Positions 2,826 through 63,584 of a stretch of 64,000 nucleotides of DNA are shown in pieces (position 1 is the first letter of the stretch; each line of letters starts with the position of its first letter). The translations under genes were made by a program, and so were the position numbers. Source of the stretch: a virus (Duplodnaviria > Heunggongvirae > Uroviricota > Caudoviricetes); the IMG/VR virus record IMGVR_UViG_2939521961_000011, one strand, 5' to 3'. Under the pieces are notes generated by a model, which saw only the letters and a list, made by a program, of their open reading frames with translations, was not told the DNA's origin and did no database searches.

Positions 2826-3003
2826 TCAGTAAATCTGAGGATTTTATGCGCAAGAACAATGACTTTTTCTGTCTGCCGTTTATACAATCTGAATTACGTC
2901 TGTTTTTTGAACACCGATAAATCAGCAAGCATTCTCAAATAAAGATTGCCTCCATAGTCCACATGGTGTAACACTATGTGTTATATAAAATGCAGAGGCA
3001 GGT

Positions 3004-3375
3004 ATGCGAATTTTCAAAAACGCCTGGTTTGAACGTTTCGCTCGAAAACATCGGATTTCCGATAAATCGCTGCGCAAAATCGTGGAGCAGGCCGATAAGG
3101 GGATCATATCCGCAAATTTGGGTAGTGGTGTCATTAAACAAAGATTAGCCCGAAGTGGTGGCGGAAAATCAGGCGGTTACCGGACAATAATTTTTTACCG
3201 CGTTGCAGAAAAAGCCTTTTTCATCTACGCATACGCAAAGAATGAACGAGAGAATATCACTGCTATAGAGGAAAATGCTTTTCGAAAAGCCGCTCCCCAT
3301 GTCCTCAATCTTACTGATGAACAGCTGGCACAATTGATTCAACAAGGCCAGTTCACGGAGGTACCCAATGAGTAA
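3004..3375 (+). CDS. RelE-superfamily toxin, HigB-2-like
   Basis: GGGKSGGYR and IIFY..AY.KNE motifs typical of HigB-2/RelE-like toxins; overlaps the downstream HTH gene by 8 nt (toxin-first order). Confidence 0.7.
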   Translation: MRIFKNAWFERFARKHRISDKSLRKIVEQADKGIISANLGSGVIKQRLARSGGGKSGGYRTIIFYRVAEKAFFIYAYAKNERENITAIEENAFRKAAPHVLNLTDEQLAQLIQQGQFTEVPNE

Positions 3376-3685
3376 AAATTACCGCAGTGATGCACTTGCA
3401 TCTGTACATGAAATGATGGAGTCACTCCATGATATCGGTGCAATCACAAAACAAACTATGCGCGAATTCGATGAAACTTGTCTTCAGCCTGCGCCGGTAA
3501 TGTCTCCGGAAAGGATCCGTGCACTGCGAGAACGAGAGCATCTGTCTCAACCTGTTTTTGCCAGATACCTCAACGTCAGTAAAAACCTGATATCAGACTG
3601 GGAACGAGGAGTGAAACGCCCGGGAGGTGCAGCTCTTCGGCTTCTTTCAGTTGTCGAGAAAAACGGGATCCAGGTAATATCCTGA
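3368..3685 (+). CDS. HTH antitoxin, HigA-2-like
   Basis: 105 aa with a C-terminal helix-turn-helix region (LSQPVFARYLNVSKNLISDWERG), coupled to the upstream toxin. Confidence 0.7.
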   Translation: MSKNYRSDALASVHEMMESLHDIGAITKQTMREFDETCLQPAPVMSPERIRALREREHLSQPVFARYLNVSKNLISDWERGVKRPGGAALRLLSVVEKNGIQVIS

Positions 3686-3787
3686 TATTCTAATACAACA
3701 AAACCCGCCGAAGCAGGTTAAGTGCGGGTGCGTTGAGGATGCCTGACACATCAGAGGTGGCGAGGGATTTCTCCCTCGCCAGGTCTC

Positions 3788-3943
3788 TTACTCCTCAGGT
3801 TCGTAAGCTGTGAAGACAGCGACCTCCGTCTGGCCGGTTCGGATTCGTACCTCGCAGAGGTCTTTCCTCGTTACCAGTGCCGTCACTATGACGGTTAAAC
3901 AGATGACAATCAGGGCGATTAACATCGCCTTTTGCTGCTTCAT
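3788..3943 (-). CDS. hok: Hok-family type I toxin (HokD/RelF-like)
   Basis: 51 aa MKQQKAMLIALIVICLTVIVTALVTRKDLCEVRIRTGQTEVAVFTAYEPEE, the canonical Hok sequence; AAGGAG RBS. Confidence 0.9.
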   Translation of the reverse strand: MKQQKAMLIALIVICLTVIVTALVTRKDLCEVRIRTGQTEVAVFTAYEPEE

Positions 3944-4170
3944 AGCCTGCTTCTCCTTGCCTTTCGGCACGTAAGAGGCTAACCTACATGTGCAAAGCAT
4001 GAAATTGGCCTCAGATTAATGTTAAGCGTCCTGCAAGACGCGTAATGTTAACTGGGGCTTTTCTCTGTCTGCCTTACGGCGGCATGCCCGAGGCAGACAG
4101 CCTCAAGCACCCGCAGCAATTCTACTTAACTCTTCTTTCCCCGCAAATCATTTTATCCCCGATGGTAATG
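3944..4170. promoter_or_regulatory. hok leader and presumed Sok antisense-RNA region
   Basis: Conserved with the region upstream of the second hok (50011..50220); Hok loci carry an antisense Sok RNA and leader fold-back elements here. Confidence 0.4.
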
Positions 4171-4214
4171 TTCTCCCGATATGGGAATTCCCATATCAAG
4201 GTTAACTCAATCGG

Positions 4215-4766
4215 TTAAAGCTCCATTAATTTTCCGGCCAGTTCATCTCGTGGCATTACCAGCCATCCGCGCGATTTAAGCAAAGCCAGGGCTTCTTCAA
4301 CCGTCACCAGCTGGCCAGGCGCATAACTTCGGATGAAGGCGGTTTTATCGTCACGGATCGCCAGGTGAAAATCGATATTCATTTTTCCCATAGCCCGCTC
4401 TTTCTCGTACTGGTTGAAGTAACTGTCTTCGAGTTTTTCGAATACTTCCCACGCCTGATCGGTTTCGAGCATTTTTGCATGACGGGCTGCTCCGCGTTCT
4501 GTCCAGAGGATGAGAGTGCGGGTTTTGGGAGAAATTTTCACCTCATTTTGCGACTCGTTTAAAACTAGTCGCAAATTTTTGAGCTCATCACCAACAGCTT
4601 TAAAGAAGTGTTTTCCCTCAATAAATCGAGATTTATTTTCATGGTGATTCTGCTGTATACGGATTGCTTCTGTTCCGTAAAGGCGGGCGAGTAACTCAGT
4701 TGTGATTACAGGAATCTGGTTATAAGTGACAGGGGAAAGGTTTTTGACAGTAACTTGAGTCGTCAT
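4215..4766 (-). CDS. Phage antirepressor / Rha-KilA-type regulatory protein
   Basis: 183 aa with the N-terminal ELLARLYG...FIEGKHFF pattern of phage antirepressors; absent from the equivalent place in prophage B. Confidence 0.6.
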   Translation of the reverse strand: MTTQVTVKNLSPVTYNQIPVITTELLARLYGTEAIRIQQNHHENKSRFIEGKHFFKAVGDELKNLRLVLNESQNEVKISPKTRTLILWTERGAARHAKMLETDQAWEVFEKLEDSYFNQYEKERAMGKMNIDFHLAIRDDKTAFIRSYAPGQLVTVEEALALLKSRGWLVMPRDELAGKLMEL

Positions 4767-5037
4767 GATAACGCCCTCTGGTTGATGAATTTAACTATCA
4801 CCACCTTCAGGTCTCAATCATCAGGTGGCGAGACGTACAGGGTTGAGACTACCGGATCAACCAACCGGCCAGCCTTTCGGCTGCCCCATACGCCTCACCA
4901 TAATTCAGATGTGCGTGCGCATACGACAATAAAAAACACGCTCGCGGCGTGTGTCTGTCGCGGTTGAATATCCGGGGTCTCAATCCCGACGGTCAACTCG
5001 ACCGTGCGGTGAATATAGCCCCGGATTAGTAATTACG

Positions 5038-5121
5038 TCAACCCCAGCGGCAAATCGAATAAACCACCAGCGCTACCGCCATTGCAACTCCTGCCGTTAC
5101 GAATGCCTCAGGCCAGGTCAT
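5038..5121 (-). CDS. Conserved 27-aa hydrophobic small protein (MTWPEAFVTAGVAMAVALVVYSICRWG)
   Basis: ATG overlaps the upstream stop (ATGA); GAGGA RBS; near-identical copy at 50221..50304 differing mainly by synonymous changes. Confidence 0.5.
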   Translation of the reverse strand: MTWPEAFVTAGVAMAVALVVYSICRWG

Positions 5122-5303
5122 CGTAAACTATCCTCAGCGCCAATCAGTCCGTTTCGCTTCAGGCAGTCCATCGCTTTATACGGTAATTTGGCTGACAGGC
5201 GAAAATCACCCTGCAGCATCAGGCTTATTCCCTTATCCCGGGCTTTCGCTCTGACCGCTGCCTCGCTACGACCAATCAGACTGCCGATACTTTCGACAGT
5301 CAT
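5118..5303 (-). CDS. Small HTH-like phage protein
   Basis: HTH-like segment IGSLIGRSEAAVRAKARDKGIS; longer paralog at 51734..52015; start chosen to avoid overlap with the upstream gene. Confidence 0.4.
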   Translation of the reverse strand: MTVESIGSLIGRSEAAVRAKARDKGISLMLQGDFRLSAKLPYKAMDCLKRNGLIGAEDSLR

Positions 5304-5362
5304 CGTTCCCGCGCACTGCCGGAGTATCAGAATTTCAGCCCGGCACCACGTCTTCCACCCAC

Positions 5363-6124
5363 TCACCGCTGCTGTTCTCTGGTGGCGGTAATATCCCGGA
5401 GAATATCCCGGCACTTGTTCAGCTCCCGCAGCGCGGCGCAGACTCGCTCCCACTTCTGAACCTGACCTTTTGCCCGGCGCAGCTCGCGGTTAGCCACATG
5501 CAGCGATGGTAAAATCAGCCCATCCGGATGCTTTCTGGTGAACGACGGCTGTGACTGCACTGTGACCGCCACACTTTCCGTTTTTATTTCTTCCTGTGTT
5601 TCCGCTTCCCGGACTGGTAACGCAACACATGCTGGCTGAGGAAAGGCTTTACCATCGGTTTCCGCTACGGATGCAGCTTCCGGCTCTGCCGGTAAATCAG
5701 CGCCCGGTATGCAGTAACGAAATTTACCGTTCTGATTTACGCGTGCCAGGCGCCCCGTTGCTGTTACGACCGCCAACGTGGAAGCAACCTTGCGAATGCT
5801 AACACCGAACTTATCCGCCAGTTCCTCACACGTTTTAGCCCCATCCTGACAGATAAACTCAATCATCATGTCCGCGGTAACTTTTTGTTCGACCTCCCCG
5901 GTCAGCACATCCGGTACTTCAGACTGTGCTGGCTGTTCTTCGGTTACCCCGGATTCACCTTCACCAGCCAGAAACCAGGTGTGACCCGTTTTATCAACAA
6001 CGCCATTTTTTTTGAGTTCCCACAGTTCGTTGAGAACTTCTTCACGGCTGATATCAAGCCGCGCCGCCAGTTCAACAGAATTGGCTTTACCCATCGTTTT
6101 CAGTGCATGCAATACGGTTTCCAT
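5363..6124 (-). CDS. DUF1627-like phage protein with N-terminal winged-helix
   Basis: 253 aa, acidic linker, conserved C-terminus; paralog at 52048..52809; lies directly downstream of the DnaC-like gene. Confidence 0.65.
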
Positions 6125-6153
6125 TAAAACTTCCTCCGGATAAAAATTACTTC

Positions 6154-6894
6154 TCAGTTCCTGTGCTGGCTGACGTTCGGACGCCAGCTCTCCCAGTTAA
6201 ACGTCACCCAGCGACCACCGTTCATGGACATGCGGTCCATCACCCGCTCGCCGAGAAGTGTATTCATCGCTGCATGGTTAAGATTTGTCAGCATCCCCAC
6301 ACTGAGTAACGATGCCGTTCTGCGGTCAACAATCTGATTCAGCGTGACCTGCTCATTACGCGTATCCCGTTGCATGCCAATTTCATCCAGTACCAGCAGG
6401 TCAACGCCACACAATCCCTGCAAAAATTTTTCGCCCGAGTTTTTGTTGTCGTAGCTGCCATGTAACGCCAGCATCACATCCGCCACTGTTATCACAATCA
6501 CACTGCGACCTTTCGCCAGAAGGTGGTTGCCAATAGCCGCCGCCAGGTGGTTTTTTCCTGTGCCAGGCCTGCCACTGAAAACAAAATTCGTACAGCCGCC
6601 TTCCAGCTCTGCCGCAATGGATTTCGCCTGACTCAGGGCATGGCGCTGACCATCGTTCTGCACCCGGTAGTTACCGAACGTACACTTCCGGTGAAGCGGC
6701 TGGATACCGGAGCGGTTAATGATTTTTTCAACCCGCGTCTGATGATTCAGACGATTAACCTCCTCGCTTCGCTTACGCCCTTCAGCAAGCTGCCATTCCC
6801 GCCACTCCGTCACCGTACGGTACGGAGGGATTGCATCCTGCGGCACAAATCTGCTGACTCTTGCCAGAACACCACCTGACGTAATGTTTTTCAT
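6154..6894 (-). CDS. Replication protein, DnaC-like helicase loader (IstB-type AAA+ ATPase)
   Basis: Walker [12 protein letters not shown] and Walker B LLVLDEIG; follows the O-like gene. Confidence 0.85.
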
Positions 6895-8665: not shown

Positions 8666-9073
8666 ATGGATACAAAAAATTTAACCATTGGCGAACGCAT
8701 TAGATATCGCCGAAAAAACCTCAAATACACCCAAAGGTCTCTTGCTAAAGTCCTGAAAATTTCTCACGTATCGGTTTCACAATGGGAGCGGGATGATAGC
8801 GAACCTACAGGAAAGAATCTTTTTGCCCTCAGCAAAGTACTGCAGTGCTCGCCAACATGGATTCTATTTGGCGATGAAGACAAGCAGCCATCACCACCTA
8901 TTGAGGAGCCAGTTGCTCTATCCCCCAAAGAACATGAGCTCCTTGAGCTTTTTAATGCATTGCCTGAATCAGAACAGGATGCTCAGCTCACCGAGATGCG
9001 CGCCCGAGTAAAAAATTTCAACAAACTCTTTGAAGAGTTATTAAAAGCCCGTCAACGAACAAACAAAAGATAA
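8666..9073 (+). CDS. dicA: Immunity repressor, DicA-like (HTH_XRE)
   Basis: 135 aa; HTH GERIRYRRKNLKYTQRSLAKVLKISHVSVSQWER; divergent from the cro-like gene with operators between. Confidence 0.85.
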   Translation: MDTKNLTIGERIRYRRKNLKYTQRSLAKVLKISHVSVSQWERDDSEPTGKNLFALSKVLQCSPTWILFGDEDKQPSPPIEEPVALSPKEHELLELFNALPESEQDAQLTEMRARVKNFNKLFEELLKARQRTNKR

Positions 9074-45570: not shown

Positions 45571-45784
45571 TATTCCTCCCGGCCGGGATAGTGTATTAAA
45601 TCAGATATGGAGTGGGCTGTAGTCCGGAAGCCTGAATGACACACGGGGACTACAGCCCAAGAAATGAAAAAAGGCCACGCAGTTGCGCAGCCTGATAAAC
45701 CCTGGTTAAAATCCACACGATAACAACACAACAATATCAGTATCTCATGCTATTGCCCGAACCCATTCGGGCATTTTTTACCCA

Positions 45785-45816
45785 TAAAAAAGCCCCTCCG
45801 GAGAGGGGCATGTTTG
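45785..45816. terminator. Bidirectional rho-independent terminator
   Basis: gcccctc cgga gaggggc hairpin flanked by an A-run and a T-rich stretch. Confidence 0.4.
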
Positions 45817-46140
45817 CATGCACATTCTTTTTCTTGCATGGTGCCGGGTGCCTCCCGGTGAATTCAGTATCAGCACCTGAATCCGCGATTATCACATATA
45901 CCTGGTTGCTGATTGCCCCTCCGCACAGGGGGATTCACCATGCAGTAGTATTTTTAATAAACAGTAAACAAAAAAATCAAGCATTATGCAGGCTGTTTCT
46001 TTTTATCACCGGCCACAGCAATACCACAATGCCGCAGACCAGCACCCCATCCGCCAGCACCGACATGATTCTGCTGGTGAAATCCACCATCACCACCAGA
46101 AACAGCAGGAGTGCAGCCACAGCCAGGCGCAGTTTTACCG

Positions 46141-49735: not shown

Positions 49736-49854
49736 TCATAGTCCTCTTTCAGAGATGAACATTCAAACAGCATTTTCAGTATGGTAAAGCGCGGGTGCGT
49801 TGAGGATGCCTGACACATCAGAGGTGGCGGGAGATTACTCCCCCGCCTGGTCTC

Positions 49855-50010
49855 TTACTTCTCAGATTCGTAGTCTACGAAGACAGCGACCTCCGTCTGA
49901 CCGGTTCGGATTCGCACCTCGCAGAGGTCTTTCCTCGTTACCAGTGCCGTCACTATGACGGTTAAACAGATGACGATCAGGGCGATTAACATCGCCTTTT
50001 GCTGCTTCAT
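49855..50010 (-). CDS. hok: Hok-family type I toxin
   Basis: 51 aa MKQQKAMLIALIVICLTVIVTALVTRKDLCEVRIRTGQTEVAVFVDYESEK; conserved leader/Sok region upstream. Confidence 0.9.
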   Translation of the reverse strand: MKQQKAMLIALIVICLTVIVTALVTRKDLCEVRIRTGQTEVAVFVDYESEK

Positions 50011-50220
50011 AGCCTGCTTCTCCTTGCCTTTCGGCACGTAAGAGGCTAACCTACATGTGTTCAGCATGGATTGAGCCTCAGATTAATGTTAAGCGTCTTG
50101 CAGGACGCGTAATGTTAACTGGGGCTTTTCTCTATCTGCCGTTGGTGTTCATGCCCGAGGCAGATAGCCTCAAGCACCCGCTGCAATTCTACTTAACTAT
50201 CCTTTTCCCGCAAACCGTTT

Positions 50221-50304
50221 TTATCCCCAGCGGCAAATCGAATACACCACCAGCGCCACCGCCATCGCAATTCCTACCGTTGTGAATGCTTCAGGCCAGG
50301 TCAT
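50221..50304 (-). CDS. Conserved 27-aa hydrophobic small protein (MTWPEAFTTVGIAMAVALVVYSICRWG)
   Basis: AGGAGG RBS; ATG overlaps the stop of the DUF551 gene (ATGA); paralog at 5038..5121. Confidence 0.5.
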   Translation of the reverse strand: MTWPEAFTTVGIAMAVALVVYSICRWG

Positions 50305-50858
50305 TGATTCACCTCCTGCGGCGGTTCTGGTAGCGACATCCAGTGGGTTGCTTGCCTAAGATCATTACCCGGACTAACTGCTATACCTCCGCGCCGGAAC
50401 GTGCCTCCGAGATAGCGTGCGGAATATATTAATGGCCCAGCCTCGCTATCGATATTCATCGAAATAAGCACGTTCTGGCTCTTTTCAGGCATTCGCTCAG
50501 TACAGCTTATCCAGCCATCCAGAGTTATCGGAGATCTGGTTGACGTTTCCGAGATTTCCCGAAAATTGTTGGTTGACGAATTCTTATTTTCCCGAAAGTT
50601 TCCGGCCTGAAGCATGGCGACGCGGCAGGCGTTCCAGCCATCAGCATATGTTTTAGTTACACCGTCGAGATGGCAGGTAAGCAAATCCATTTCATCAGGC
50701 ACTACCATTGCTATCGGCTCTGCTTCCAGTGATGCCAGCGCGATACGAAACACATTAGCCAGCAGGCTGTCTGAAGACTTGTTATCGTGCGCCGAGTCGC
50801 TCAGGAAGCCTGTGATGTATGATTTAATCTCCGCGCGTTCTCTGGTAATAGTGCTCAT
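50301..50858 (-). CDS. DUF551-type phage protein
   Basis: 185 aa with C-terminal W.SC.ERMPE...THWM.LPEPP pattern that I associate with DUF551. Confidence 0.55.
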   Translation of the reverse strand: MSTITRERAEIKSYITGFLSDSAHDNKSSDSLLANVFRIALASLEAEPIAMVVPDEMDLLTCHLDGVTKTYADGWNACRVAMLQAGNFRENKNSSTNNFREISETSTRSPITLDGWISCTERMPEKSQNVLISMNIDSEAGPLIYSARYLGGTFRRGGIAVSPGNDLRQATHWMSLPEPPQEVNQ

Positions 50859-50859
50859 A

Positions 50860-51078
50860 TCAGTTTTCCTTATACGGATTAATTTTATTGTGCAGTGCGC
50901 TGAATGATTCCCATGTCACATCGGTATATAGCTCAATAACTGGTTCAAATGTCCTTCCAATTATCCAGACCAGTAATAGCGGGGATATCGGTATCATCAA
51001 CACTATAAACAGAATGAAAAACAGAAACTCTGTTGTTCTGCTCTTTCGTGGGTAATTTTTTTCTAAATAATGTTTCAT
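50860..51078 (-). CDS. Hypothetical small membrane protein
   Basis: 72-aa ORF with one strongly hydrophobic helix FLFFILFIVLMIPISPLLLVWII. Confidence 0.35.
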   Translation of the reverse strand: MKHYLEKNYPRKSRTTEFLFFILFIVLMIPISPLLLVWIIGRTFEPVIELYTDVTWESFSALHNKINPYKEN

Positions 51079-51205
51079 TTCTTACCGCCCTTTCGGGCGG
51101 CCTCCTGATGTTCTGAGGGTGCAGGAATCCCTCCGGTTAAGGATTTAATAAAAATCGTTTCTGATTTAAATCTTCAGTATTTAGTTGTTAGTTGGTTTAT
51201 CGCCT

Positions 51206-51517
51206 TTATGCTTCAGCCTTATTTCGCAACCAGACACAAACCGGGCCATCTTCCGTATCATGAATGGAACCAATAAACCAGCCATCGCCCTCTGGTCGTT
51301 CCGGTTCCCATGCAGAAATATCAGCATCACACGCATCAAGGTCAGCACATCCTTCATCTCTGAAGCAGAGGACGTATTGAAGATTATTTTCCTCCATCCA
51401 GGCGTTAAACTCTTCCGTTGAAATATATTCCCGACCATCACAGAATTTTTCATATTCAGGATGTGTCCAGTAGCCATATCCGTCACGAACTACCGGCATT
51501 TCTTTAATTTCACTCAC
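51206..51517 (-). CDS. Hypothetical acidic phage protein
   Basis: 103-aa ORF in the nin region, operon-like packing with neighbours. Confidence 0.45.
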   Translation of the reverse strand: MSEIKEMPVVRDGYGYWTHPEYEKFCDGREYISTEEFNAWMEENNLQYVLCFRDEGCADLDACDADISAWEPERPEGDGWFIGSIHDTEDGPVCVWLRNKAEA

Positions 51518-51737
51518 TGTTAACCTCCTGCAACGCTACACGATACGCCTTCTTTATCCACGCCTTACTGCCATATAATTTCGTCTTCATAATAAACACA
51601 CCTGCACGACTCGCCGATATCCCCGGACAGGTTAACAGCACAGCATCCACCACACGGTTATGCTTCCGAAACTCCATTACAGTACTGCTGATAACCACCT
51701 GCCCCACCGGGCCGTAATCCTGATACAGGATTTTCAC
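51510..51737 (-). CDS. Hypothetical phage protein
   Basis: 75-aa ORF overlapping its neighbours by 8 and 4 nt. Confidence 0.4.
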   Translation of the reverse strand: MKILYQDYGPVGQVVISSTVMEFRKHNRVVDAVLLTCPGISASRAGVFIMKTKLYGSKAWIKKAYRVALQEVNSE

Positions 51738-52015
51738 GCAGACACCCTCCTGTCGAAATAAACGTAGTTATTCACTATGCGCAGCGGCATGCCTAATTTT
51801 CTGGCAATTTCCCTTCTTTGCATGCCTCTCTGATGCAGTTGCCGCGCCAGCTCAATATCACGCTGAGAATATTTTGCCGACGGGTGAAAATCACCACGTA
51901 ACATCATGCTGATGCCCAGCTCCCGTGCCTTCGTTCTCACTGCCGCTTCAGTTCGTCCGATAAGTGCGCCAACGCTTTTTACCTTCATCGTTCCCGCACA
52001 CTGCCGGAGTATCAT
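51734..52015 (-). CDS. Small HTH-like phage protein (two HTH-like segments)
   Basis: Paralog of 5118..5303 with a C-terminal extension; start chosen at an internal ATG. Confidence 0.4.
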   Translation of the reverse strand: MILRQCAGTMKVKSVGALIGRTEAAVRTKARELGISMMLRGDFHPSAKYSQRDIELARQLHQRGMQRREIARKLGMPLRIVNNYVYFDRRVSA

Positions 52016-55292: not shown

Positions 55293-55380
55293 ACCTTCCT
55301 CGGTTTAGTGTTTTTTTGCGAGTTTAGTGTTTAATAAACCATTAAGTCAAGTATTTGCTTGTTTAGTGATTACTAAAGAT
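55293..55380. promoter_or_regulatory. Immunity-region operators (GTTTAGTG repeats)
   Basis: GGTTTAGTGTTTTTTT, GAGTTTAGTGTTTAAT and GTTTAGTGATTACTAAAG repeats between the divergent cro-like and repressor genes; similar repeats at about 56325-56350. Confidence 0.45.
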
Positions 55381-55761
55381 AATTACCACATGCAAAAAAA
55401 AGAAATTCGCCGTTTACGTCTCAAGGAGTGGTTTAAAGATAAAACTCTGCCACCCAAAGAGAAGAGCTACCTATCTCAACTAATGAGTGGGAGAGCCTCG
55501 TTTGGAGAAAAGGCTGCCAGAAGAATAGAGCAAACATACGGGATGCCGGAAGGGTATCTGGATGCGGAATACGCAGAACAACCGGGGGTTTCTCCACCAC
55601 ATGCAGGGTTAACGTCTAATCAACTGGAATTATTGCAGATTTTTTCAGCCTTCCCTGAGGATGAGCAACGCCAGATAATCAGCGAGTTAAAGCAGAAAAA
55701 AGAATCAATGGAAGATCTCATAGCGAGATGGATTGCGGCGCAAAAATGCCGCCGCGCCTGA
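55327..55761 (+). CDS. racR: Rac-type immunity repressor RacR-like
   Basis: 144-aa ORF (true start may be the internal MQKKEIRR); HTH-containing, divergent from ydaS; Rac gene order. Confidence 0.7.
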   Translation: MFNKPLSQVFACLVITKDNYHMQKKEIRRLRLKEWFKDKTLPPKEKSYLSQLMSGRASFGEKAARRIEQTYGMPEGYLDAEYAEQPGVSPPHAGLTSNQLELLQIFSAFPEDEQRQIISELKQKKESMEDLIARWIAAQKCRRA

Positions 55762-61449: not shown

Positions 61450-61656
61450 ATGACAAAAATTATGAGATATGACGATGTTAAACCATGTCCGTTTTGTGGT
61501 TGTCCATCTGTTACAGTGAAAGCAATTTCAGGATATTACCGGGCAAAATGCAACGGATGCGAATCCCGAACTGGCTATGGTGGAAGTGAAAAAGAAGCAC
61601 TCGAAAGATGGAATAAACGAACTACTGGAAATAATAATGGAGGTGTTCATGTATAA
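61450..61656 (+). CDS. ralR: Restriction alleviation protein Lar (RalR)
   Basis: MTKIMRYDDVKPCPFCGCPSVTVKAISGYYRAKCNGCESRTGYGG... with Cys4 zinc ribbon, as Rac Lar. Confidence 0.8.
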   Translation: MTKIMRYDDVKPCPFCGCPSVTVKAISGYYRAKCNGCESRTGYGGSEKEALERWNKRTTGNNNGGVHV

Positions 61657-61837
61657 AATAACTGCCACTATTGAAAAAGAAGGTGGCACTCCTACTAACT
61701 GGACAAGATATTCAAAATCTAAATTAACGAAATCAGAATGCGAAAAAATGCTCTCAGGGAAAAAAGAAGCAGGCGTGTCCAGAGAGCAGAAAGTAAAGCT
61801 GATAAATTTTAATTGCGAGAAACTTCTGTCCTCGTGA
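61637..61837 (+). CDS. ydaC: YdaC-like small protein
   Basis: Small ORF overlapping the lar 3' end, in the Rac order lar-ydaC-xis-int; start uncertain. Confidence 0.5.
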   Translation: MEVFMYKITATIEKEGGTPTNWTRYSKSKLTKSECEKMLSGKKEAGVSREQKVKLINFNCEKLLSS

Positions 61838-63306: not shown

Positions 63307-63584
63307 TATAACCAAAAAAGACCGGAATACAGAAATTCGAGTAAATTTCGAGTAATTTCGGGGAGACGTTTGCAACTAATTGATTTTAAATACAATTAAA
63401 AAAAGACCGAATACGATTCCTGTATTCGGTCCAGGGAAATGGCTCTTGGGAGAGAGCCGTGCGCTAAAAGTTGGCATTAATGCAGGCTTAGTTGCCTTGC
63501 CCTTTAAGAATAGATGACGACGCCAGGTTTTCCAGTTTGCGTGCAAAATGGTCAATAAAAAGCGTGGTGGTCATCAGCTGAAAT

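Follow-up and report, generated by a model that had tools for sequence, protein, structure and literature searches.

At the boundary between a gene of 27 codons and the promoter of a hok gene, two prophages lying in the same stretch of DNA differ by a segment of 885 bp, which is very likely a self-contained regulatory module of the kind known from the immI operon of phage P1 and from the isrK-anrP locus of the Salmonella prophage Gifsy-1. The stretch in question, called the window throughout, comprises the 64,000 nucleotides taken from the IMG/VR record IMGVR_UViG_2939521961_000011 (Caudoviricetes), and the segment is present in prophage A (4161..5045, minus strand) and absent from prophage B, as found both by direct reading and by comparing the window with itself by BLAST. 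Every element of this cassette lies on the minus strand, and one third of it does not code for protein, holding instead a promoter, an IsrK-like small RNA (sRNA) and a C4 antisense RNA ahead of the gene of an ORF6N-domain protein. A and B differ here through a single event of illegitimate recombination, placed where two genes meet and having a 4-bp overlap (GGGG), and the cassette is not autonomously mobile. It is an instance of ordinary lambdoid mosaicism, and its cargo is of an already described kind (P1 immI, Gifsy-1 isrK-anrP; the Rfam families C4, isrK and c4-a1b1). Beyond what the first-pass annotation of this region had seen, the analysis brought out the RNA control region, a -35 hexamer that also provides a stop codon, the lack of conservation of the orf45 reading frame of Gifsy-1, and a large combinatorial diversity of the C4 recognition segments a' and b'.

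Promoter, RNA leader and covariation

The cassette opens with a predicted sigma-70 promoter of its own (5012..5041, minus strand; promoter scan, 10 of 12 matches), consisting of a -35 hexamer TTGACG at 5041..5036, a spacer of 18 nt, and a -10 hexamer TATATT at 5017..5012. The -35 hexamer starts one base past the junction, and the TGA within it is at the same time the stop codon of the 27-codon open reading frame (ORF) in A (...TGG GGT TGA), while the version in B ends in ...TGG GGA TAA, with a stop taken from the hok-side flank. Among related modules the homology begins exactly at the -35 TTGAC in at least 15 unrelated upstream contexts, and in Gifsy-1 (after gene Q) and the IMG/VR loci L105, L114 and L115 the -35 hexamer directly follows an upstream TAA stop. 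The element TCCGGGGCTATATT, which spans the -10 hexamer (window 5012..5026), is almost invariant across cassette alleles, the rest of the spacer being variable, and is possibly an operator or else an extended promoter element. A module so tightly packed, running from a -35 hexamer to a stop codon, offers a clean worked example of lambdoid mosaicism.

Two RNAs follow the promoter, both on the minus strand. The first (4931..5005) matches the Rfam family isrK with 51.2 bits (gathering score 50), bears the putative decoy sites b1 (UUGAGAC, 4983..4977) and a1 (UCAACC, 4967..4962), and ends in an intrinsic terminator picked up by the terminator scan (stem 4952..4936 and a run of six T). The second (4821..4905) is a C4-type antisense RNA, with 69.4 bits against a gathering score of 45, whose predicted fold reaches -44.4 kcal/mol (z = -5.09, the whole leader having z = -3.94) and exposes two segments, a' (UUGGUUGAU, 4864..4856) in the loop of hairpin 2 and b' (GUCUCAA, 4849..4843) in an unpaired joining segment. 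The target region of the mRNA leader (4774..4817, minus strand) holds b2 (UUGAGAC, 4817..4811) and a2 (AUCAACCA, 4786..4779), and a2 abuts the Shine-Dalgarno sequence GAGGG (4778..4774). Both b2/a2 and the b1/a1 pair of IsrK are exact complements of b'/a' in C4, and the b elements were also found independently by the repeat finder (repeats D4 and I6).

The same arrangement is found in Salmonella, where the Gifsy-1 locus isrK-orf45-anrP-isrJ was described by Hershko-Shalev et al. 2016 (PMC4825925), AnrP being STM2616. IsrK provided in trans increased anrP translation 139-fold, and AnrP in turn raises the transcripts of the antQ operon and induces Gifsy-1 (PMC4825925). In the Gifsy-1 record, we found a promoter and matches to c4-a1b1 (48.1 bits), isrK (79.3) and C4 (69.0) between Q (STM2617) and STM2616, with isrJ (100 bits) after STM2616. 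As in the window, the promoter (TTGACA...TCCGGGGCTATATT), IsrK with its terminator, the C4-like RNA (STnc1160) and the antirepressor come in this order, and at its 5' edge the cassette directly adjoins the stop of the preceding gene. The two differ in position, the window cassette standing between the 27-codon gene and hok whereas the Gifsy-1 module comes directly after Q, and also in a'/b' specificity, which is UUGGUUGAU/GUCUCAA in the window and UCGGUGAU/ACGCCAA in Gifsy-1. Downstream of the window antirepressor, isrJ gave no Rfam match at E <= 1 in 3000..6500.

The most consequential difference concerns orf45, which in Gifsy-1 has 45 codons and an ATGA overlap with anrP, providing translational coupling (PMC4825925). 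By comparison with that frame, the window retains a 14-codon remnant of it (MVRRMGQPKGWPVG followed by a stop, 4857..4901, minus strand), not coupled to the antirepressor start, since it stops within the a' loop, 90 nt ahead of the start codon; the ORF list has no frame of more than 14 codons between C4 and the ORF6N start. This is the common state, given that the orf45 frame has fewer than 40 codons in 31 of 38 alleles, and the 45-codon ORF with its ATGA overlap occurs only in Gifsy-1 and in locus L077, while a few other alleles have longer frames. The coupling model was thus rejected for the window allele, its frame being of 14 codons and ending 90 nt upstream. Because the orf45 coupling does not carry over, we favour for the window a P1-like mechanism, in which C4 would itself cover the Shine-Dalgarno region and IsrK would serve as a competing decoy.

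In P1, C4 blocks ant expression and is needed for full ant repression (PMC8198154). The P1/P7 immI operon, c4-icd-ant1/2, is known here through the work of Citron and Schuster 1990 as summarised in PMC8198154, and, as far as that summary goes, it shares with the window an antisense RNA coming from the leader of an antirepressor operon, the pairing of a' and b' with a2/b2 at the ribosome-binding site, a second target copy a1/b1 upstream, and specificity alleles differing by compensatory changes. In immI, icd stands between c4 and ant, its translation being what C4 control acts on directly, and the promoter is under the primary repressor (Op51/C1), whereas the window has no icd and its a2 adjoins the Shine-Dalgarno sequence of the antirepressor itself. 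In contrast to P1/P7 immI, moreover, the upstream a1/b1 segment of the window is a terminated sRNA, and the carrier is a lambdoid prophage instead of a plasmid prophage.

The pairings proposed above covary. Related loci (numbered with an L) were gathered from GTDB genomes and IMG/VR, and 37 distinct leaders were aligned. Between b' and b2, 98% of the cells are paired, and 59 cells with double changes were counted against 17 +/- 5 in shuffled data, none of 500 shuffles being as high, while slid registers, taken as the control, paired in 17-47%. Between b1 and b', pairing is complete (100%), with 64 double changes (0 of 500 shuffles). As the loop length varies, the a'-a2 register is unreliable in MAFFT, and exact complements in cognate and non-cognate pairs were compared instead. 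There are 16 different a' loops, and in 36 of the 37 leaders an exact complement of 6-9 nt ends 6-16 nt ahead of the start codon, the exception being L005, whose longest a' complement overlaps the start codon; among non-cognate a' pairs, a complement of at least 6 nt turns up in 7.8%.

The 16 a' and 10 b' variants are freely combined, giving about 24 combinations in the 37 leaders. Tentatively, and as an idea that we consider rather improbable at present, a' and b' could make up a combinatorial RNA "immunity code" that splits the enterobacterial lambdoid prophages into many cross-talk groups. If so, the C4 or IsrK of a given prophage would act, by silencing or by release, on the antirepressors of co-resident prophages only where these have the same code, and the code would decide which prophages of a polylysogen are co-induced, including Shiga toxin (Stx) phages with the same leader. 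As separate observations, Mixta mediterraneensis has two leaders 1 kb apart (L010, 1722..3013), identical in a' and different in b', and in one IMG/VR prophage (L050, at 2724 and 5986) two cassettes separated by 3.3 kb differ in their codes.

The ORF6N protein and the proposed switch

The only gene of the cassette (4215..4766, minus strand, start ATG at 4766; WP_000211993.1) encodes an ORF6N-domain protein of 183 aa, a putative antirepressor of the AnrP type. The first-pass annotation had called it an antirepressor gene, and it is indeed of the kind so annotated, with a Pfam ORF6N match at 1.9e-20, a full-length match at 1.1e-77 to PHROG 2379 ("anti-repressor"), and 51% identity over the full length (183/187 aa, E 1e-61) to AnrP/STM2616 of Gifsy-1. 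The Ant proteins of Stx phages, e.g., phi24B and 933W-like phages (Fogg et al. 2011, PMC3064807), match the window, at 65-80% nucleotide identity, in the leader RNAs and in the N-terminal half with its ORF6N domain, and this homology stops at the -35 edge. They differ from it in having a P22-Ant-type C-terminal domain and in the location of their gene in the nin region, whereas the C-terminal 65 aa of the window protein are of AnrP type. In two genomes, NZ_AP038976.1 and NZ_CP193497.1, the ORF6N gene of the cassette is split by an IS3-family insertion.

The candidate target of this protein is the repressor of prophage A (8666..9070), which has 135 aa, an HTH_3 domain only and no peptidase domain, and is 34% identical to the Gifsy-1 repressor. 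Repressors of the Gifsy type are not cleaved but are inactivated by antirepressors, and homologues occur in most E. coli genomes (Lemire et al., PMC3121763). Because the prophage A repressor is short, has HTH_3 only and resembles this non-cleavable type, the cassette could plausibly be a switch that controls the induction of prophage A, and possibly that of co-resident prophages too. Both prophage repressors of the window, that at 8666..9070 and another of 144 aa at 55327..55758, are short and without a self-cleavage domain, and a C-terminal motif L-x-x-F-x-x-(L/F)-P-E is common to the two and to the Gifsy-1 repressor. Within the window, the C4/isrK module is found nowhere in prophage B.

Put together, the observed anatomy, homology, complementarities and covariation suggest the following circuit, in which the processing of the RNAs, the direction of regulation and the target of the protein are inferred. 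The promoter of the cassette would fire at about 5005 on the minus strand, and most transcripts would stop at the IsrK terminator, yielding the short sRNA, whereas those reading through would carry the C4-type RNA and then the antirepressor mRNA. The a' and b' segments of C4 would pair with a2/b2 at and just upstream of the Shine-Dalgarno sequence, leaving the antirepressor untranslated, and IsrK, bearing a1 and b1, would relieve the block by competing for C4. The 183-aa protein, once made, would inactivate the short non-cleavable repressor of the prophage and so bring about induction. The cassette is probably an induction switch of a Qin-site prophage of O26 and related Shiga-toxin-producing E. 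coli, and, since many Stx phages have this RNA leader in front of their ant genes, RNA cross-talk between prophages could influence toxin-phage induction.

Several points weigh against this reading. The isrK score is barely over the gathering threshold (51.2 vs. 50 bits), and the c4-a1b1 match overlapping IsrK, at 27.1 bits, stays under its own gathering score in Rfam. In addition, the minimum-free-energy fold of the full leader pairs b1/a1 of IsrK with a'/b' of C4 in cis and keeps the Shine-Dalgarno sequence largely open, which makes the sign of the regulation in cis uncertain; this cis pairing agrees with "structure A" of PMC4825925. The shortening of orf45 means that the published Gifsy-1 mechanism is not transferable unchanged. 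On the side of the protein, the C-terminal 65 aa match no Pfam family, a search at E <= 1 returned no related solved structure, and the designation as an antirepressor is a putative one, taken from the homology to AnrP and from database labels.

ORF6N is a predicted DNA-binding domain, related to KilA-N and Bro-N, and this counts in favour of another role, in which the protein would not be an antirepressor but, for example, a DNA-binding regulator, a KilA-like host killer or an anti-defence protein, and the cassette a lysogenic-conversion or exclusion moron. The protein also lacks the P22 Ant C-terminal domain borne by the Stx-phage Ant proteins with which it shares its N-terminal half, and the action of AnrP itself was deduced from raised transcription of the antQ operon and not from a demonstrated binding to the repressor. 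However, the window protein aligns with AnrP from end to end at 51% identity, and AnrP, when expressed, induces Gifsy-1 without any need for the isrK locus; P1 governs its own antirepressor through this same circuit; and the resident repressor belongs to the non-cleavable type, which requires an antirepressor. We consider a role other than that of an antirepressor unlikely.

Junctions, flanks and polarity of the indel

The flanks of the cassette are homologous in the two prophages. On the left, A 3716..4160 corresponds to B 49783..50228 (446 bp, 90.8% identity, by direct reading and self-BLAST), and on the right, A 5042..5121 corresponds to B 50225..50304 (80 bp, 90%, by self-BLAST, in which matches were reported at E <= 1e-10); this similarity is far above chance level. 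Between the flanks lies a single indel of 885 bp, which may be written as A 4161..5045 or equally as 4157..5041, as there is a boundary ambiguity of 4 bp. The sequence CCCC occurs in A at 4157..4160 and again at 5042..5045, a 4-bp direct repeat (GGGG on the minus strand), and the B segments overlap by one CCCC at 50225..50228, which is the single copy in B. The right copy in A corresponds, on the minus strand, to the GGGG of the Trp-Gly codons closing the 27-codon ORF. A longer junction repeat was considered by comparing the end of the tail (...ATTACCATCGGGGATAA) with the gene end (...ATTTGCCGCTGGGGATAA), where 5-6 of 11 positions match outside GGGGATAA, which is near chance, and it was not used.

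In B, the hok leader directly adjoins the 27-codon ORF, just as the first-pass annotation had described, and the junction strings that it quoted (TTATCCCC|GATGG and ACCCC|AGCGGCAAATCG) are exact. The alignment of A with B likewise upheld its claim of homologous flanks with one indel at the site, and thus of one clean block in A, whereas the size of about 870 bp gave way to the 885 bp measured. Its term "cleanly bounded moron" holds for the clean single indel and fails for a simple one-gene moron, since the segment has a promoter and two RNAs besides the gene and is thus a self-regulating switch of the immI type.

Morons are a concept developed for lambdoid phages by Hendrix and Juhala. Like a moron, the cassette forms an extra transcription unit that separates two genes found side by side in a related phage, and it has a predicted promoter of its own and edges at gene boundaries. 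Unlike morons, it has a G+C content (0.477) close to that of prophage A (0.479), its 3' end has no canonical terminator in the window context but a hairpin without a U tract, and its cargo is a phage-regulatory switch and not a host-fitness gene.

Directly to the right of the site, there is a second, separate indel, A 5122..5185 (64 bp) vs. B 50305..51870 (1566 bp), so that A and B differ by several indels in the region, though by one at this site. In a genome identical to B, the content of 50305..51870 is annotated as a DUF551 gene, a DUF4014 gene and two hypothetical genes, and the upstream "DNA-binding protein" gene of A is annotated as truncated.

The right flank is the 27-codon hydrophobic ORF (MTWPEAFVTAGVAMAVALVVYSICRWG; 5038..5121 in A and 50221..50304 in B, minus strand), which is unannotated in RefSeq. 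Of the 10 nt at which the A and B versions differ, just 3 aa changes result, and its start forms an ATGA overlap with the stop of the preceding gene, which is not always the same one; the product is probably a genuine small membrane protein. After ...CTGGGG, the gene has four continuations among the related loci, each of which gives a stop codon: the promoter of the cassette; the hok promoter in the empty arrangement (B, L092); 372 extra bp and then a cassette (L050-52); and unrelated sequence (L063, L075).

The left flank is the hok/sok module (3788..4160, minus strand), with the hok coding sequence at 3788..3943 (Pfam HOK_GEF, 2.7e-23), the sok model at 3938..4112 (Rfam, 117.3 bits), and a promoter region extending to about 4150, whose position was deduced from the start of the model. 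Between this module and the antirepressor stop lies a "tail" of 54 nt (4161..4214, minus strand) containing a perfect 20-bp palindrome, GATATGGGAATTCCCATATC (4178..4197, repeat I4), which forms a hairpin of -16.9 kcal/mol (z = -2.9) without a U tract and is not a canonical terminator. The tail with its palindrome is found only where hok follows the ORF6N gene, a diverged copy being present in Salmonella L004, whereas L048 and L060, whose copy of this ORF is 94-96% identical in the C-terminal part, have a canonical terminator and another neighbour after it, with the homology ending at the stop codon. The tail therefore travels with hok and not with the antirepressor gene, and the 885 bp hold at least two mosaic units. 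In L049-L052, the palindrome is of 26 bp, and it is kept while its flanks vary. Several strongly diverged cassette alleles occupy the same site between the 27-codon gene and hok, their leaders being 68-93% identical to that of A, and they show breakpoints inside the ORF6N gene as well. Given this recurrent placement of cassettes upstream of hok, a second and weaker possibility for their significance is that read-through from the switched-on antirepressor operon could feed the hok/sok killer locus.

In a survey of 5426 complete E. coli genomes, the empty arrangement was present in 1106 and the A-type cassette in about 140-160, so that the search for other prophages with or without the cassette, proposed in the first-pass annotation, returned both. 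A synthetic junction made of the left and right flanks of A, standing for the empty site of the A haplotype, had no match of at least 80% coverage in these genomes, the best empty sites being 91-95% identical to it. Whether the context is filled, empty or other, the hok flanks are about 84-96% identical to one another and intermixed, and they are uninformative on polarity. With no A-type empty site and with flanks of about 90% identity that are intermixed, the event is old and the cassette is not actively mobile.

The claim that the cassette was inserted in A does not follow from the comparison, because the outcome would look the same if B had lost the segment by deletion between the GGGG repeats, and there is no recent filled/empty pair from which to read the polarity. 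We lean slightly towards an insertion into A. The gene ending ...CTGGGGATAAA / GGGGATAAA has two different downstream neighbours, hok and the context of L063/L075, which suggests that it is the native end of the 27-codon gene; GGGGATAAAA recurs where the insert ends distally, which is what one expects of an insertion overlapping by 4 bp; and empty sites are about 7 times as common as A-type filled ones. None of these points is decisive.

In the opposite history, which we rate a little short of an even chance, the adjacency of cassette and hok would be ancestral, and B and the approximately 1100 genomes with an empty site would have lost the cassette by deletion between the GGGG repeats. A microhomology-mediated deletion would make use of just such a 4-bp direct repeat, and many strongly diverged cassette alleles at this site share identical outer junctions. 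Furthermore, diverged lineages in which the junctions are different also have an ORF6N cassette immediately ahead of hok (L004 of Salmonella, and L077, L088 and L047), the stop codon abutting the hok promoter in L077 and L088 and the tail being shorter in L047, which means that the adjacency itself is old.

A transposable element, autonomous or mobilisable, with CCCC as its 4-bp target-site duplication would account for the CCCC at both ends and for the many genomic contexts with a constant 5' end. We regard it as extremely improbable and rejected the transposon reading, along with that of a miniature inverted-repeat transposable element, given that a repeat search found no terminal inverted repeats, that there is no transposase or recombinase, the ORF6N protein being the sole ORF, and that the 3' boundary varies, lying at the stop codon in L048 and L060 and after the 54-nt tail in the window. 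Besides, the 5426 genomes contain neither a precise excision nor a pre-insertion allele of the A haplotype, and no GGGG flanks the -35 hexamer in other contexts.

Neighbouring features of the window

Back to back with hok lies a gene of a RelE/ParE-type toxin with that of a helix-turn-helix antitoxin (3004..3685, plus strand), and as this pair adjoins hok, three addiction or regulatory modules are clustered within 2 kb. From 15437 onward in the window, the nleC/tail-fibre end of another lambdoid prophage comes right after the integrase of prophage A, a place taken by rspB in O26:H11 11368; the integrase of A adjoining the end of the other prophage indicates two prophages in tandem, an arrangement also present in O157:H7 Z885 and others. 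Elsewhere in the window, Rfam matches over the gathering scores were obtained at 10591..10642 (DicF), 45718..45969 (AgvB adjoining STnc100), 50005..50179 (a second sok), 61655..61833 (RalA) and 63394..63538 (SraC/RyeA with SdsR/RyeB).

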